A stretch of DNA of 63,307 nt, filler included. It is 9 parts of 9 records of this genome, joined end to end, with 100 filler letters (N's around TTAATTAATTAA, not from the genome) between each part and the next. Parts side by side here need not be neighbours in the genome. Positions count along the whole stretch, not along the records: positions 52,597 to 58,450 come from SRR20825010_7159; 8 more parts are not named here. One strand, 5' to 3'. Positions 52,497 to 58,550 of the stretch are shown piece after piece. Each line of letters starts with the position of its first letter. The stretch's first letter is position 1. Position numbers and translations under genes: made by a program. Below the pieces are notes generated by a model, which had not been told where the DNA came from, ran no database searches, and worked only from the letters and a program-made list of their open reading frames with translations.

Positions 52497-52670
52497 NNNN
52501 NNNNNNNNNNNNNNNNNNNNNNNNNNNNNNNNNNNNNNNNTTAATTAATTAANNNNNNNNNNNNNNNNNNNNNNNNNNNNNNNNNNNNNNNNNNNNGCGC
52601 CAAAAGGGTCCCTTTCCTGACGTGGTAGCGGAAGTTTTGTGAGTTAAAGAACACCAACTTTGGAGTAAGT

Positions 52671-54299
52671 ATGTCCGACGGAAAAAGTCTTGACAAGGCC
52701 AAGGAGATGGCCAAGGCTAAGGCCGAGGAACTGAGGGAGGAGATTTCGGAAGGCAACCTCACGGTGCAGGCAGCCGCCAGGAATCTCAAGTCAGTGATGG
52801 GGTCCAACCCTACCTTGGCACATGTCTATGCAGCTTTGAAGCGGGTGCCGGATACCGTTTCTATCGGAGAGCTGTATAACAGGGATAGGACAGGTGTACT
52901 TTTATTCAGGAAGGATAGTTTGCCAAGGGGCAAACAGGCAGATGCGGAAGCCGAGAGTGAGGGTGACAACGATGATAATTTCGAGGTGACCAACCTGCCA
53001 AAGGAATTCAGGAAGATTCCAAGGAAGATCTTCGAGGAACTGCTGAAGAAGAATGGGTTGGAGGAGGATGAGGAAAAGACCGCCGACAACCTTCCCAGCT
53101 TCCCCGAACCTGGATCGGTGAGTGTGAGGTCGTTGAGCGCTGCTATCAGCGAGAGAGCGGCTCAGTCCCACTACGTCATCATCGAGACAGCGGCAAATGG
53201 TAGGGAGATGCGGAGTGGGAACGCGGCCGTGACCGTCACCTCTGCGCGCTCAACTGTTGCCCAGGCAGCCAAGAGTGTCTGGAATTTCGAGGCCATCAAG
53301 GAAGCTGGCATCCAGGTGCTGGACATCGGCGAGGCCATGGCCGAGAGGCTGAACCAGGAAGGAAAAGTGGTAGTACCTGTGCTCACGCTGGAAGAGGATG
53401 CCATCCTGGTCGACATGCTGCTAGCGTTGTGCCCATCCAAGACCATGGTGGAGAGGTACTCCAGCGAGGATGCGGAGCTGAACCCCAACAGGAGGTTCGA
53501 TCTGTATCATGAGATGATCCGTGAGTACGACAACCAGTACGCCCATGATGCCCTGTCGCGTGCCCTACAAGAGCACCAGAAGATCAACGACGCGATCTCA
53601 AACGACAAGTTTAGCAACGAATACATGACTACCTGGATGGAGGAGGTGTTGAACGTGGCCGACAAGGGTAATGCTCTGCTGATGCGCATCGCCAGGTCCG
53701 CGGAGAAGGATGTCTCGAAGACCATCCAGGACCAACTCGTGATGACGCCCTTCATGGTGTCTGCGAAGATCTACACCAGGATCAATGACATCCCCACGGG
53801 CAAGATCAAGAACTACATTCTCACGCTTACCGAAGCTGAGAGGAACCTGTACCGAAGGGATGCTCGCGCCTGGGTTGTGGCCATCAGGACCAAGGAGAAC
53901 GAGAGCAACACCAAGTACCGGTTCCATCGCGATCAAGTGGCGGCAGTGTGCAGGACCGAGGTCAATGCCATTGACACTGGCCGGAAGAAGTTCACTGGCA
54001 AGCGAGATCGCGAGGAGGACGAAGAGGATGAAGACTCCGATCGCAAGATCAAGGTTGCCGAGGACAATCGCAAGGCTCGCGAGGAACGTCTCCAGAAGGC
54101 CGCCGACAAGAAGGCTGCTGCAGAGGAGAAGAAGAAGAAAGAGGCAGAGAAGAAGAAGAACGAGGAGAAGAAGAAGAAGCAGAATAAGCACCGGAAAGGG
54201 AATGTGACCTTCAAGAGACAGTGTCACCTTTGCCAGAGTGAGGAGCACCTGCTTCGCGATTGTCCGAGCCTTGAAAAGGCTCAAGCCGCCATCAACTAG
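52671..54299 (+). CDS. gag: Gag-like protein with C-terminal zinc knuckle
   Basis: 542 aa, K/E-rich stretch then CHLCQSEEHLLRDC (CX2CX4HX4C). Confidence 0.85.
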   Translation: MSDGKSLDKAKEMAKAKAEELREEISEGNLTVQAAARNLKSVMGSNPTLAHVYAALKRVPDTVSIGELYNRDRTGVLLFRKDSLPRGKQADAEAESEGDNDDNFEVTNLPKEFRKIPRKIFEELLKKNGLEEDEEKTADNLPSFPEPGSVSVRSLSAAISERAAQSHYVIIETAANGREMRSGNAAVTVTSARSTVAQAAKSVWNFEAIKEAGIQVLDIGEAMAERLNQEGKVVVPVLTLEEDAILVDMLLALCPSKTMVERYSSEDAELNPNRRFDLYHEMIREYDNQYAHDALSRALQEHQKINDAISNDKFSNEYMTTWMEEVLNVADKGNALLMRIARSAEKDVSKTIQDQLVMTPFMVSAKIYTRINDIPTGKIKNYILTLTEAERNLYRRDARAWVVAIRTKENESNTKYRFHRDQVAAVCRTEVNAIDTGRKKFTGKRDREEDEEDEDSDRKIKVAEDNRKAREERLQKAADKKAAAEEKKKKEAEKKKNEEKKKKQNKHRKGNVTFKRQCHLCQSEEHLLRDCPSLEKAQAAIN

Positions 54300-54317
54300 G
54301 AATCCGGGCCTGGTCGT

Positions 54318-57300
54318 ATGGGAGGATTCATGCATGCCATCATGAAGGATGTGCTGCACATATTCCCAGACAACCAGGCCGTACCAATAACCGCTGTAGG
54401 TTCTGACACAAAGGCCTACTGCGAGAACTGGAGGAGGATTACAGGAGGACGTGGGTCAGTTGAAGGTTTGGGAGGAGCCAAATCGACAGACGCTACTCAC
54501 TTGGTGGACTTGAGGTTACCATTACTGGTGAAAGGAGGAGACACATGTGCGTTCATCCTGATCAAGGACGCGTTGTACTGCCCCAGCATGCCACGCACTT
54601 TCCTCAGTGTTGATCAGATGGATGCGCAAGGAATCCTTGTGGAGGCCAGTCGACACAGGGACAAGGAGAAGAGGGCCACGACTCGCAAGAAGGGACAGAA
54701 TGTCAGGCCCGACACTAGCAAGTACGTCATGGTGGATGTGCACGGCAAGGAGGTCGAATTGATGGTGGAGAGAGCCCTGGAGGGGACGGGTGGAGAAGCA
54801 TTTGTGGCGCCGAGGCCGGAAGACACATTTGCCACCACACTATCCAACATCACCGGTACCATCAGTGCGGAGCAGATCCAGAAGATCAATACCCAGGTGA
54901 ACAACATCAGGATGGTTGACCTTGATCTACCAGACTGGGACAACATTGCCAAGAACTACCCCTTGCCCACTGTGAAGGATGACAACAATCAGGTTCCAGT
55001 TGGTCAGCCAGTGCTAGCACCCAAACGCACCAACCTGACTGCTCAGCAACATCACGAGGCACATTGTCACTTCGGTTGTGGGGTGCTTCGGTACGTGGAC
55101 AAGCCGTCACAGAATGCAGATATCAAGGAATTCCTCAACAAGAAGAACACCGAGATGTGTGAGCATTGCCTCAAGCACCAGAAGCGCAACAAACATGTAC
55201 GCGAGGGGACGGAGGAGTGGCCACAGTTGTACCAAGCGCCGGAGGAGGGAGAGCCAGGAGCGGCCACCCAGACCGACACTGGTGTGATGATGCCTCTCGA
55301 GAAGGTGCCAGGACGAACTGCGAAGCGACGGAGAAAGGACGTGATGGGTCACACATGCATGCAAGTTTTTGCAACACCAGCCGGGGCCGTATCTCACCTG
55401 GATGCCTTCCCCATGCCGGACAAGAGTGCACGACACGTCGCCGCCGCTATCAGGAAGGCCGTCCTGCGCCATGGCAAGATGAATGGACTGATTCACGACG
55501 GGTCACAGGAGCAGATCTCGCGAGAGGTGAAGGATCTACTCGTGGAGCTTGGAATTCCCGACCTGCCCACCCCGAAGTACACTCCCCAGATGAGGACGAG
55601 AGTGGAAACGGCGATGCGACTAGTGCACAAGGTCCGTGCATGTTTGTCGCGGGCAGCGTTACCTGTGGATTTTGCGCTGTTAGCGTACGAGCAGATTGTG
55701 TTCCAGTACAACGACATACCGCGCAAACAAAGGCAGAAGGTGTACCGCCATCAACTCGTGAAGGAGGAGGACGGAATTGTGACGCTGAAGGTGAACAAAA
55801 GAGAAGAAGATTTTGTTATCAAGTCATCCAATGAAGTGCTTTTCAATCGCAAGCGCGAGTACACACCCATACCGTTTGGACTGTTTGTGCGCGTGGGAGT
55901 GCACGCACCTCGCACGGAATCCAAGCTGGAGCCCGAGAAGGGAGTCGGCCCAGGAAGATTGGGATTCCATGTGGGCTATGCGGCTGGAGGACAAGCTCAT
56001 CGTGTGATGTATATCGACGTGTTGAGAACCGCGAAGAAGGCCAAGATCGACACCGTCACCGACGTGGAGCCACTGTGGAAGAAGGGCTATGCCGGGGAGG
56101 AGGTTTGCAAGCTGCTCAACTTGCGCTTTGACATGGACGCAATCGACGATTTCGTCAATGACGCCCTCACCCGCGCTGATCGTCAAGAGGAGGCTGTTGC
56201 TCATCAGATGCCAACCATCGAAGAGCATCAGGGAGGAGAAGAAGACGATGCCGGTGAGGATGTTGAAGAGGACATACAAGGCGAGGTGGCCGATGATGCA
56301 GCCAGCGGAGACACGGAGTTCTTCTCTGCGAACAGCGACGCGGTCAGTGTCAATGCACTTTGGGGACAACCGACAGTAGTCTTACCAGAGAAGATCGGTT
56401 TTGTCAATGCCTCGGTGTTGGCCATCAAGGCGAAGAAGCAGAAGCAGCGCGAGGAACATCTAGCGGTACCTCATCAGCCACTTCCGGAAGGCTATGAGTA
56501 TTCCGACATCCCTGAGATCCGTGCCATGCAAGAGCAACCTTTTGACGAGGAAAAGTTTTGTCAATGGGTACGGGCAACATATGTCAATGAGGACTTACCA
56601 AAGGCGCCGCGCAACGAGAAGGCCATTCTCAAGATGGACGAGAAGTGGGCTGTTGCATGGGCCCATGCCCTGCTCAAACAGAACAAGACGTACACCAGGC
56701 CTGAAGCAGATACAGTATTGGTTAGGTTGGACGATGTGCCCGAAGGGAATGTCATCTTACCGGAAATCATGCTGTTCCACAACAAGATGGACGGGCCCAA
56801 GTTCGTCAAGTGCAAGTGCCGAGTGGTCTGCGATGGTTCGAAGACGCCCGACACTGGCGAGTTCTATGGTGGCACGGCCAAGTCATCGACAAGGAGGTAC
56901 TCGTCTGCCATCCAGGCAGCAGTACCAGGCTACAGGAGCGACTCATCTGACTTCGAAGGAGCATATCAGATGGCCGAGTCGTATCCGCCGACGTACACCT
57001 GGGGACATAAGAAGATCAGAGACAAGGACGGCAGGCCGATGGTGAAGCAGAACCGTAACCTCATGCCAGGGACGAGACAAGGACTACCCGACTGGAACCT
57101 CACCTTCGGTGCCGAGGCGGTGACACAGGGCATGGTACAGGACATCTTCGACTCCACGCTTTTCAGGTGGAATCCGTACCCGGACTGCCCACACGCCTGG
57201 CATGGACGCAAGTACTGGCGCTACAACCCAAAGAAGCACGTCTTCCGAAGGTTCCCAGGCATGGGCGACATACCCAAGCGGTGCCCGATGTGTGAGGGCC

Positions 57301-58367
57301 CTCCACTACGTCTCCCATGGCTAGCCATCAGTGGCCATGTTGACGACAACAAGAACACCTACTGGTTCATGGACAGGAAGGGATTAGCCAAGAAGAAACT
57401 CGACGACATCTTGGCCAAGTTCCTGACCACGGCACTAGTACCACTTGAGAACGGAGCAACCTACCTGGCAGTGGAGCACTACGTGGAGGAGGATGGCACA
57501 GTCAGTCTGTGGCAGCCCCACGCCATCGACAAGCTTGTGGAGTACACCGGGATGGTGGAAGCCAAGCCAGCCTACACTCCGGCACCAGCAGGGGAGCGAC
57601 TATCCAAGGAAGACATGCCGCAGTCGGATGAGGAGCGCCGCGAAGTGGCTGCCATCTACGGCACCAACATGCGGGAGATCGTTGGCCAGTGCCAATGGAT
57701 CCGCTCGGAGACGCGCGACGATATCGACCTGGCTCTGCGTGACGTGGCAAGGTATCAGCACGACCCTGGAGTCAAGACATGGAAGTTTCTACTTCACCTG
57801 GTGAGGTACCTCAAGGGCACTCGCAACAAGAGGAAGACCTTCAGCCGAAATGGCTTCAACTCCATCTATGATGCCCTCCGAGTGGAGCACCAGGCGGACT
57901 CGGGACATGGCGACGTCCCACACACCTACCAGAACACCACGGGCCATGTGGAGTTCATCTGCGGTGGTGTACTCAATGCTGGGAGCGAGACCCAGAAGTC
58001 CAACACCATCAGCTCAAGGGATGCGGAGATCACTGCACAGAGCACGTCAGTTATTCAGGCAAGATACTGGCGACTCATCTCTGCGTCATGGGGCATACCT
58101 GTGGAAGAGCCCACCCGCATAGCGTTGGACAACAAGGCGGCGTGGCTCAGGTTGTCCAAACCTGACGCTGCAGCAGGTCGCGGCAAGCACCTCAACCTCA
58201 AGTTCTTCTTTGTCAAGGACGCCATAGACGAGGGAGTTGTTGAGGTGTACTGGCTCGCTGGTGACGAAATGTCTGCCGATATTCTCACCAAGCACCTTCA
58301 CCGTGGTGCGCATGAGCGCCACGTGAGGAGATGGGGCATTTATGACCCCACCTCCGCCTCTGGTTAA
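54318..58367 (+). CDS. pol: Pol polyprotein (PR-IN-RT-RNase H)
   Basis: PR DALYCPSMPRTFLSV; IN HEAHCH/CEHC, TD, HDGSQE, YTPQMRTRVE; RT KCRVVCDG, DFEGAY, PGTRQG, HVDD; RH DSG, SSRDAE, DNKAA, KHLNLKFFFVKD, ADILTK. Confidence 0.92.
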   Translation: MGGFMHAIMKDVLHIFPDNQAVPITAVGSDTKAYCENWRRITGGRGSVEGLGGAKSTDATHLVDLRLPLLVKGGDTCAFILIKDALYCPSMPRTFLSVDQMDAQGILVEASRHRDKEKRATTRKKGQNVRPDTSKYVMVDVHGKEVELMVERALEGTGGEAFVAPRPEDTFATTLSNITGTISAEQIQKINTQVNNIRMVDLDLPDWDNIAKNYPLPTVKDDNNQVPVGQPVLAPKRTNLTAQQHHEAHCHFGCGVLRYVDKPSQNADIKEFLNKKNTEMCEHCLKHQKRNKHVREGTEEWPQLYQAPEEGEPGAATQTDTGVMMPLEKVPGRTAKRRRKDVMGHTCMQVFATPAGAVSHLDAFPMPDKSARHVAAAIRKAVLRHGKMNGLIHDGSQEQISREVKDLLVELGIPDLPTPKYTPQMRTRVETAMRLVHKVRACLSRAALPVDFALLAYEQIVFQYNDIPRKQRQKVYRHQLVKEEDGIVTLKVNKREEDFVIKSSNEVLFNRKREYTPIPFGLFVRVGVHAPRTESKLEPEKGVGPGRLGFHVGYAAGGQAHRVMYIDVLRTAKKAKIDTVTDVEPLWKKGYAGEEVCKLLNLRFDMDAIDDFVNDALTRADRQEEAVAHQMPTIEEHQGGEEDDAGEDVEEDIQGEVADDAASGDTEFFSANSDAVSVNALWGQPTVVLPEKIGFVNASVLAIKAKKQKQREEHLAVPHQPLPEGYEYSDIPEIRAMQEQPFDEEKFCQWVRATYVNEDLPKAPRNEKAILKMDEKWAVAWAHALLKQNKTYTRPEADTVLVRLDDVPEGNVILPEIMLFHNKMDGPKFVKCKCRVVCDGSKTPDTGEFYGGTAKSSTRRYSSAIQAAVPGYRSDSSDFEGAYQMAESYPPTYTWGHKKIRDKDGRPMVKQNRNLMPGTRQGLPDWNLTFGAEAVTQGMVQDIFDSTLFRWNPYPDCPHAWHGRKYWRYNPKKHVFRRFPGMGDIPKRCPMCEGPPLRLPWLAISGHVDDNKNTYWFMDRKGLAKKKLDDILAKFLTTALVPLENGATYLAVEHYVEEDGTVSLWQPHAIDKLVEYTGMVEAKPAYTPAPAGERLSKEDMPQSDEERREVAAIYGTNMREIVGQCQWIRSETRDDIDLALRDVARYQHDPGVKTWKFLLHLVRYLKGTRNKRKTFSRNGFNSIYDALRVEHQADSGHGDVPHTYQNTTGHVEFICGGVLNAGSETQKSNTISSRDAEITAQSTSVIQARYWRLISASWGIPVEEPTRIALDNKAAWLRLSKPDAAAGRGKHLNLKFFFVKDAIDEGVVEVYWLAGDEMSADILTKHLHRGAHERHVRRWGIYDPTSASG

Positions 58368-58550
58368 TCTTTTCCAGGGGCTAGGCCCTTCCATTTTTCT
58401 GTCTCATCTTTGTTTTGTGTTTGGTAAACACAACATCTGTTGGTACTAGGNNNNNNNNNNNNNNNNNNNNNNNNNNNNNNNNNNNNNNNNNNNNTTAATT
58501 AATTAANNNNNNNNNNNNNNNNNNNNNNNNNNNNNNNNNNNNNNNNNNNN

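Follow-up and report, generated by a model that had tools for sequence, protein, structure and literature searches.

A candidate stop-codon readthrough site between gag and pol of a very divergent Ty1/copia retrotransposon

The gag-pol junction

The window analyzed here, a stretch of DNA of 63,307 nucleotides, consists of nine unrelated contigs (GC content 0.35 to 0.67) joined through runs of N with an TTAATTAATTAA linker; because these contigs are concatenated, adjacent genes are uninformative about the host of the element considered here. This element occupies the contig SRR20825010_7159 (52597..58450; 5,854 bp, GC content 0.55, with N-run/TTAATTAATTAA spacers on both sides), which is eukaryotic and represents the internal region of a long terminal repeat (LTR) retrotransposon of the Ty1/copia type. 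All features described below lie on the + strand. A gag open reading frame (ORF) (52671..54299; 542 aa followed by TAG) starts with an ATG at 52671 in a frame that is open from 52629, and is followed in the same frame by a pol ORF (54300..58367; 1,355 aa followed by a TAA at 58365). A single in-frame UAG (54297..54299), read directly in the sequence in the context AAC UAG GAA UCC, separates the two, and a long hairpin is predicted to begin 7 nt downstream of it. We identify this UAG as a candidate site of programmed stop-codon readthrough.

The reading frame, the position of the stop and the intactness of the ORFs were computed directly from the contig. In the gag/pol frame, stop codons occur only at 52626, 54297, 58365 and 58425, while the other two frames contain 62 and 60 stops. 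There is thus one stop in 1,898 codons, and no frameshift, and this stop is placed between the zinc knuckle of Gag and the protease of Pol. These counts bear out an earlier sequence-only reading of this DNA, which had described gag and pol as in frame, separated by one TAG and followed by 1,355 open codons (54300-58367). The junction reads ATC AAC TAG GAA TCC GGG CCT GGT CGT ATG (54291-54320), and the ATG that had been reported 18 nt downstream of the stop is found at 54318. The distance from the knuckle to the stop, previously given as 10 codons, needed correction: the last Cys of the CCHC zinc knuckle (CHLCQSEEHLLRDC, 54222..54263; PF13696, E 0.00068, below the curated cut-off) is 11 codons from the TAG.

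Downstream of the stop, a copia-type protease region is indicated by hhalign and Atlas at about pol residues 20-117 (54357..54650). In hhalign comparisons to 21 copia proteases, pol residues 84-117 aligned with a probability of 92% (E 5.4e-7). The catalytic Asp, which we placed by eye, is probably D24 in a DNQA motif, with D36 as the alternative. The ESG at pol residues 1-3 was considered as a DSG motif and set aside, the global hhalign alignment being of low confidence (probability 50%). Single-sequence structure models were uninformative, with a predicted local distance difference test score (pLDDT) of 33 for the protease region and 42 for the Gag core. With D24 as the catalytic residue, the zone between the knuckle and the Asp comprises 35 codons (1.8%), and with D36 it comprises 47; of 414 sense codons that a single substitution would turn into TAG, 2 fall within the knuckle-to-Asp zone. 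The spacing of 35 codons compares with 27, 33, 34, 41, 43, 46 and 118 codons in seven single-ORF copia polyproteins, i.e., those usable among 16 full-length polyproteins picked. Because the spacing equals that of single-ORF polyproteins, no non-coding gap has been added at the junction.

The predicted hairpin and its statistics were likewise computed directly. A 7-nt spacer, GAAUCCG (54300..54306), lies between the UAG and an extended hairpin of 74 nt and 26 bp (54307..54380) with a predicted free energy of −36.8 kcal/mol (z −3.65); 1 of 200 shuffled sequences folds as well. The basal helix, GGCCUGGU/ACCAGGCC, consists of eight Watson-Crick pairs of which the first four are G-C, and these basal pairs have probabilities of 0.89-1.0 in three contexts with windows of 200-600 nt. 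The hairpin encodes pol residues 3-27. However, the encoded protein does not dictate this fold, since only 3 of 2,000 synonymous recodings form an equally stable structure (z −3.6). Among sliding windows of the element, the hairpin ranks second of 289 by shuffle z (30 shuffles each) and third of 206 under synonymous-codon shuffling. When all codons were ranked with windows of 80-120 nt that had not been fitted to the hairpin, the TAG ranked 19 of 1,897, 48 of 1,893, 63 of 1,890 and 60 of 1,886 codons. The likely protease motif, DNQA and not D[ST]GA, is encoded in the 3' arm of the hairpin (54369-54380). Read in this way, the motif resembles a DNQS motif of diatom elements.

Two shorter stems had been suggested for this region from complementarity alone. 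The complementarity of GAATCC to GGATTC and of TTCATG to CATGAA, and the coordinates of these segments, are correct; as structures they are not likely. The GAATCC/GGATTC stem has a pairing probability of 0.00 in three larger contexts and forcing it costs 16.4 kcal/mol, while forcing the TTCATG/CATGAA stem costs 6.2 kcal/mol. The segment 54297-54340 on its own is no more stable than shuffled sequences (z +0.67; 151 of 200 shuffles are as good). Moreover, a GAATCC stem directly behind the stop would sit inside the mRNA channel of the ribosome (PMC13517186). We rejected the GAATCC/GGATTC stem as the stimulator. The only stem noted that would cross the hairpin is again 54300-54305/54324-54329, in which about 15 bp would presumably have to be bridged by a loop of 1 nt. 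A long-range partner of the hairpin loop, as in tombusviruses, was also rejected: the best complements are 6-8 nt long and scattered, and none lies in the hairpin array near the 3' end. A 10-bp helix between 54306-54315 and 58379-58388 is matched by three comparably strong helices elsewhere.

The array in question, in which four hairpins follow one another at the end of pol (58252..58382), is the strongest predicted RNA structure of the element (58240-58389: z −4.08, 0 of 200 shuffles), and a function in packaging, in export or as a 3' signal is conceivable. Rfam gave one chance match and none at the junction.

A very divergent copia lineage

Judged by its sequence, the element is a very divergent Ty1/copia retrotransposon with the pol order protease, integrase, reverse transcriptase (RT) and RNase H (RH). 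This order is seen in the protease match at pol residues 84-117, the integrase at 279-592 and RT/RH at 801-1340. The RT is of the RVT_2 type and is followed by an RNase H with an ADxxTK end, and the integrase has HHCC and DD(35)E motifs, as judged by a weak alignment. A search with the RT/RH segment against 1.84 billion representatives gave 17,006 matches, the best 150 of which are 24-35% identical; the top matches that we inspected are copia polyproteins. In Atlas, RT/RH adjoins RVT_2 clusters at 0.97, with 201-204 of 256 features in common, and the protease adjoins eukaryotic clusters at 0.95 and Pol_BBD at 0.92. The Atlas clusters nearest to the protease and to RT/RH are eukaryotic and include a few diatom records, with taxa taken from one to three records per cluster; these diatom records may serve as a lead on the lineage and are no host assignment. 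In a tree of 150 unnamed RT/RH segments, the element occupies a long branch next to P0021 (support 0.97, 33% identity). A Pfam scan reported only the zinc knuckle, below its cut-off, and left the RT unmatched, and a sequence search of the PDB gave no matches.

The integrase (55047..56075) was delineated by the weak pairwise alignment to P0003 (E 0.001, 21% identity), with D326, D400 and E436 as candidate catalytic residues and 35 residues separating the second D from the E; the CEHC motif comes from the alignment and the His pair was placed by eye. RT and RNase H span 56700..58334, with GHVDD at 57333-57347 and ADILTK at the end of RNase H, and their catalytic residues align in register with those of copia relatives. 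Just before GHVDD, the RT contains an insertion of about 41-46 residues (57168..57314) with a C-P-H...H and a C-x2-C motif. None of the four aligned copia RTs spanning this region has the insertion, which is possibly a metal-binding module. Gag is notable for a long Lys/Glu-rich stretch upstream of the knuckle, and no homologue of its 542 residues was found among 7,997 scored candidates.

The contig ends lie close to the ends of both ORFs. No LTR pair is present on the contig: the window is without repeats of at least 40 bp, and the longest repeat common to the two contig ends is 8 nt. The sole candidate for a terminal signal is a tentative primer-binding site (PBS)-like sequence, TGGTAGCGGAAG (52623..52634), which lies 26 nt from the contig start and is not preceded by the usual CA. 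The first 7 nt of this sequence are identical to the tRNA-Met PBS reported for the GalEa copia elements (PMC5445492). At its other end the contig terminates in TGTTGG..., which is also the start of the Tca2 LTR (PMC4139406), with no purine tract upstream.

Searches for sister copies and for reads gave no second example of the junction; no sequencing run was listed. Six scans of viral contigs and two scans of prokaryote genome contigs returned no sister loci. In metagenome contigs, none of 56 pattern matches held up with full Pol as the query, while 5 of 220 did so with alignment A2, all at 24-32% identity. A search with the Pol protein gave 2 matches among 7,999 candidates, and one with Pol residues 1-560 gave none among 8,000 shorter candidates. 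Thus, relatives above 35% identity were found in neither the contig nor the protein searches. One of the metagenome relatives, L001 (1-4963), is a circularly permuted copia contig.

Proposed readthrough and alternative routes to Pol

We consider programmed readthrough of the UAG at 54297-54299 the best-supported explanation of this junction, with a probability of about 0.7. In the mechanism that we envisage, most ribosomes would terminate at the UAG, with release of Gag. With the UAG in the A site, the G-C-rich hairpin 7 nt downstream would be positioned at the mRNA entrance of the ribosome and would slow termination, such that a near-cognate tRNA would occasionally decode the UAG. Occasional decoding would, in turn, yield Gag-Pol at a low, fixed ratio. 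For this to hold, the stop would be fixed in the family to which the element belongs, and the hairpin would form in vivo and stimulate readthrough.

Several observations favor this model. The catalytic motifs of integrase and RT/RH are retained. In addition, the junction has the layout of a type III readthrough signal in the Beier-Grimm classification. Type III signals generally contain UAG-G, and stem-loop signals have spacers of 7-9 nt (PMC3159437); type III contexts also generally require a downstream structure (PMC13517186). Here, the UAG is followed by G (UAG GAA), and a stable G-C-based structure, which in this class is placed about 8 nt past the stop, is predicted at 7 nt. Readthrough had already been suggested by the sequence-only reading, and the suggestion is strengthened by the long hairpin and its 7-nt spacer. 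By contrast, to call the signal new was an overstatement, because this layout agrees with that of the known type III class and in-frame gag/pol stops have been described in several retrotransposons.

Other observations weigh against readthrough. The junction does not match the narrow type III hexamers UAGGGV, UAGGUA and UAGGAU, UAGGAA being one base off. In published stimulators, a run of consecutive G-C pairs opens the structure close to +12 (PMC13517186), and here the stem begins at +11, not +12, with G-C pairs from +11 to +14. The junction may, therefore, work like a type III signal without being a strict member of this class by hexamer. The structural statistics also have limits: 11 of the 289 windows of the element have z below −3, windows of 60 nt, which are too short for the hairpin, rank the TAG only 110 and 538 of 1,898, and a rank of 1 of 1,868 was obtained with a window fitted to the hairpin and is hence biased. 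L001 (32% identity in RT/RH), the sole relative with a visible junction, has a single open gag-pol, and the similar-looking junction of Tca2 did not direct readthrough when assayed with a yeast reporter (PMC2194720). Finally, there is one copy only, which by itself cannot show fixation of the stop or covariation in the stem. It is chiefly this single copy, with no sister locus or close relative, that limits our confidence.

If the stop is fixed, Pol could still be made in another way, i.e., by (re)initiation at Met7, Met11 or Met15, from a weak internal promoter, by splicing that removes the UAG, or by A-to-I editing; we regard this group of explanations as unlikely. Three in-frame ATGs (54318, 54330 and 54342) do lie upstream of the likely catalytic Asp, and the Tca2 junction that failed in the reporter had weak promoter activity (PMC2194720). 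However, two of these ATGs are paired in the predicted hairpin (U and G, P 0.94-1.0), the first has a C at −3, and free Pol would require a separate route into the particle (PMC2194720). For splicing, CTAG/G could act as an acceptor, but no pyrimidine tract precedes its AG, and only 2 of the 33 phase-0 GT sites in gag fit GTRAG; these two donors are situated about 1.18 kb upstream, and their use would remove the knuckle and most of Gag. Editing is disfavored in that the UAG is not stably double-stranded in the predicted fold. Frameshifting was rejected because it is unneeded with pol in frame with gag.

Less probable than these routes is that the stop is a one-off nonsense mutation or an assembly error in a single-ORF element, with a hairpin that is there by chance or has another role. 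The stop is seen in a single contig, a single-ORF gag-pol is common in copia elements (L001 and the seven polyproteins above), and structured RNA is present elsewhere in the element, all of which would fit such an error. Against it, the 1,898 codons contain no other stop or frameshift, a stop would fall in the junction zone with a chance of about 1-2.5%, and so stable a downstream fold has a chance of about 1-3%; under independence, the joint chance is of the order of 1 in 1,000 or lower. The two would not be independent if the gag/pol boundary had been marked by the hairpin beforehand for some other purpose. We consider it highly improbable that UAG is translated as an amino acid genome-wide in the host and that gag-pol is an ordinary single ORF. 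Genetic codes in which UAG is a sense codon are known among protists; however, the element has 1 UAG in 1,898 codons compared to 52 CAG and 19 CAA, and its sole use falls precisely at the end of gag. If UAG made up 20% of the CAG/UAG pool, at most 1 in 53 would have a P of 1e-4, and at 10% a P of 0.026.

Comparison with known systems and implications

A close counterpart of the proposed readthrough site is that of Moloney murine leukemia virus (MoMLV), in which readthrough has been shown experimentally. Both have a UAG between gag and pol in an AC-UAG-G context (GAC UAG GGA in MoMLV, AAC UAG GAA here) and a structure that starts at +11/+12 with consecutive G-C pairs. They differ in that MoMLV is a retrovirus with an 8-nt purine-rich spacer and an H-type pseudoknot, whereas the element described here is a copia retrotransposon with a 7-nt mixed spacer that is not purine-rich and a long, simple predicted hairpin. 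In murine leukemia virus (MuLV), about 5% of ribosomes read through, with insertion of glutamine (PMC8310308).

Among retrotransposons, a close parallel is Tca2 (pCal) of Candida albicans, which we liken to our element by the layout of the junction and not by sequence relatedness. Tca2 is also a copia element with one stop, gag and pol in the same frame, and a short spacer with a predicted structure behind it (PMC2194720); its stop, however, is UGA, followed by the spacer AAAACAGG (PMC4139406) and a predicted pseudoknot, in contrast to UAG and a hairpin here. These Tca2 features are conserved in eight strains. Tj1, Tcry1 and Tosmo1-3 of fission yeasts share an in-frame gag/pol stop, and for Tj1 this stop is cited as essential for transposition (10.1101/2022.12.06.519325). 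These elements are of the Ty3/gypsy type with a type II-like GAA-TGA-CT context, and the passages of that source on the junction mention no downstream hairpin. A long stem-loop in place of a pseudoknot, 7-9 nt past the stop, is found in the alphavirus Venezuelan equine encephalitis virus, the coltivirus Colorado tick fever virus and furoviruses (PMC3159437, PMC13517186); these are RNA viruses with UGA-CGG/CUA contexts, whereas here UAG-G occurs in a retroelement.

Elements from other microbial eukaryotes show several arrangements. Between gag and pol, diatom elements are described with one or no stop or with a frameshift (PMC2806351), choanoflagellate elements with one frame or a frameshift (PMC6875170), and GalEa elements with a single ORF (PMC5445492). 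The likeness of our element to the diatom CoDi elements (Ty1/copia) comes from Atlas clusters. No copia element with a UAG and an extended hairpin turned up in our literature search, with most subscription papers outside its reach. Thus, in-frame gag/pol stops are known from Tca2, Tj1/Tosmo and MuLV, and what differs here is that a copia lineage without close relatives combines UAG with a hairpin that is long and simple.

A more far-reaching scenario, which is speculative and which we hold to be rather unlikely as a whole, is that a UAG cassette like that of gammaretroviruses, with a long hairpin replacing the pseudoknot, evolved independently in a deep, unsampled copia lineage of some microbial eukaryote. 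In this scenario, the 3' arm of the hairpin would lie over the protease active-site codons, pairing between the spacer and the internal loop would form a competing conformer and possibly a two-state switch between Gag and Gag-Pol, and the RT would carry an inserted Cys/His module.

Retroelements need much Gag and little Pol, and for Tca2, a copia element with an in-frame stop, the reporter was negative. The junction described here takes up about 85 nt, and its predicted stimulator is clear and placed at textbook spacing; this compact site therefore lends itself to a direct test of structure-stimulated UAG readthrough in copia elements. If readthrough does occur at this junction, a type III-like signal would have arisen independently in a group other than retroviruses and plant viruses.

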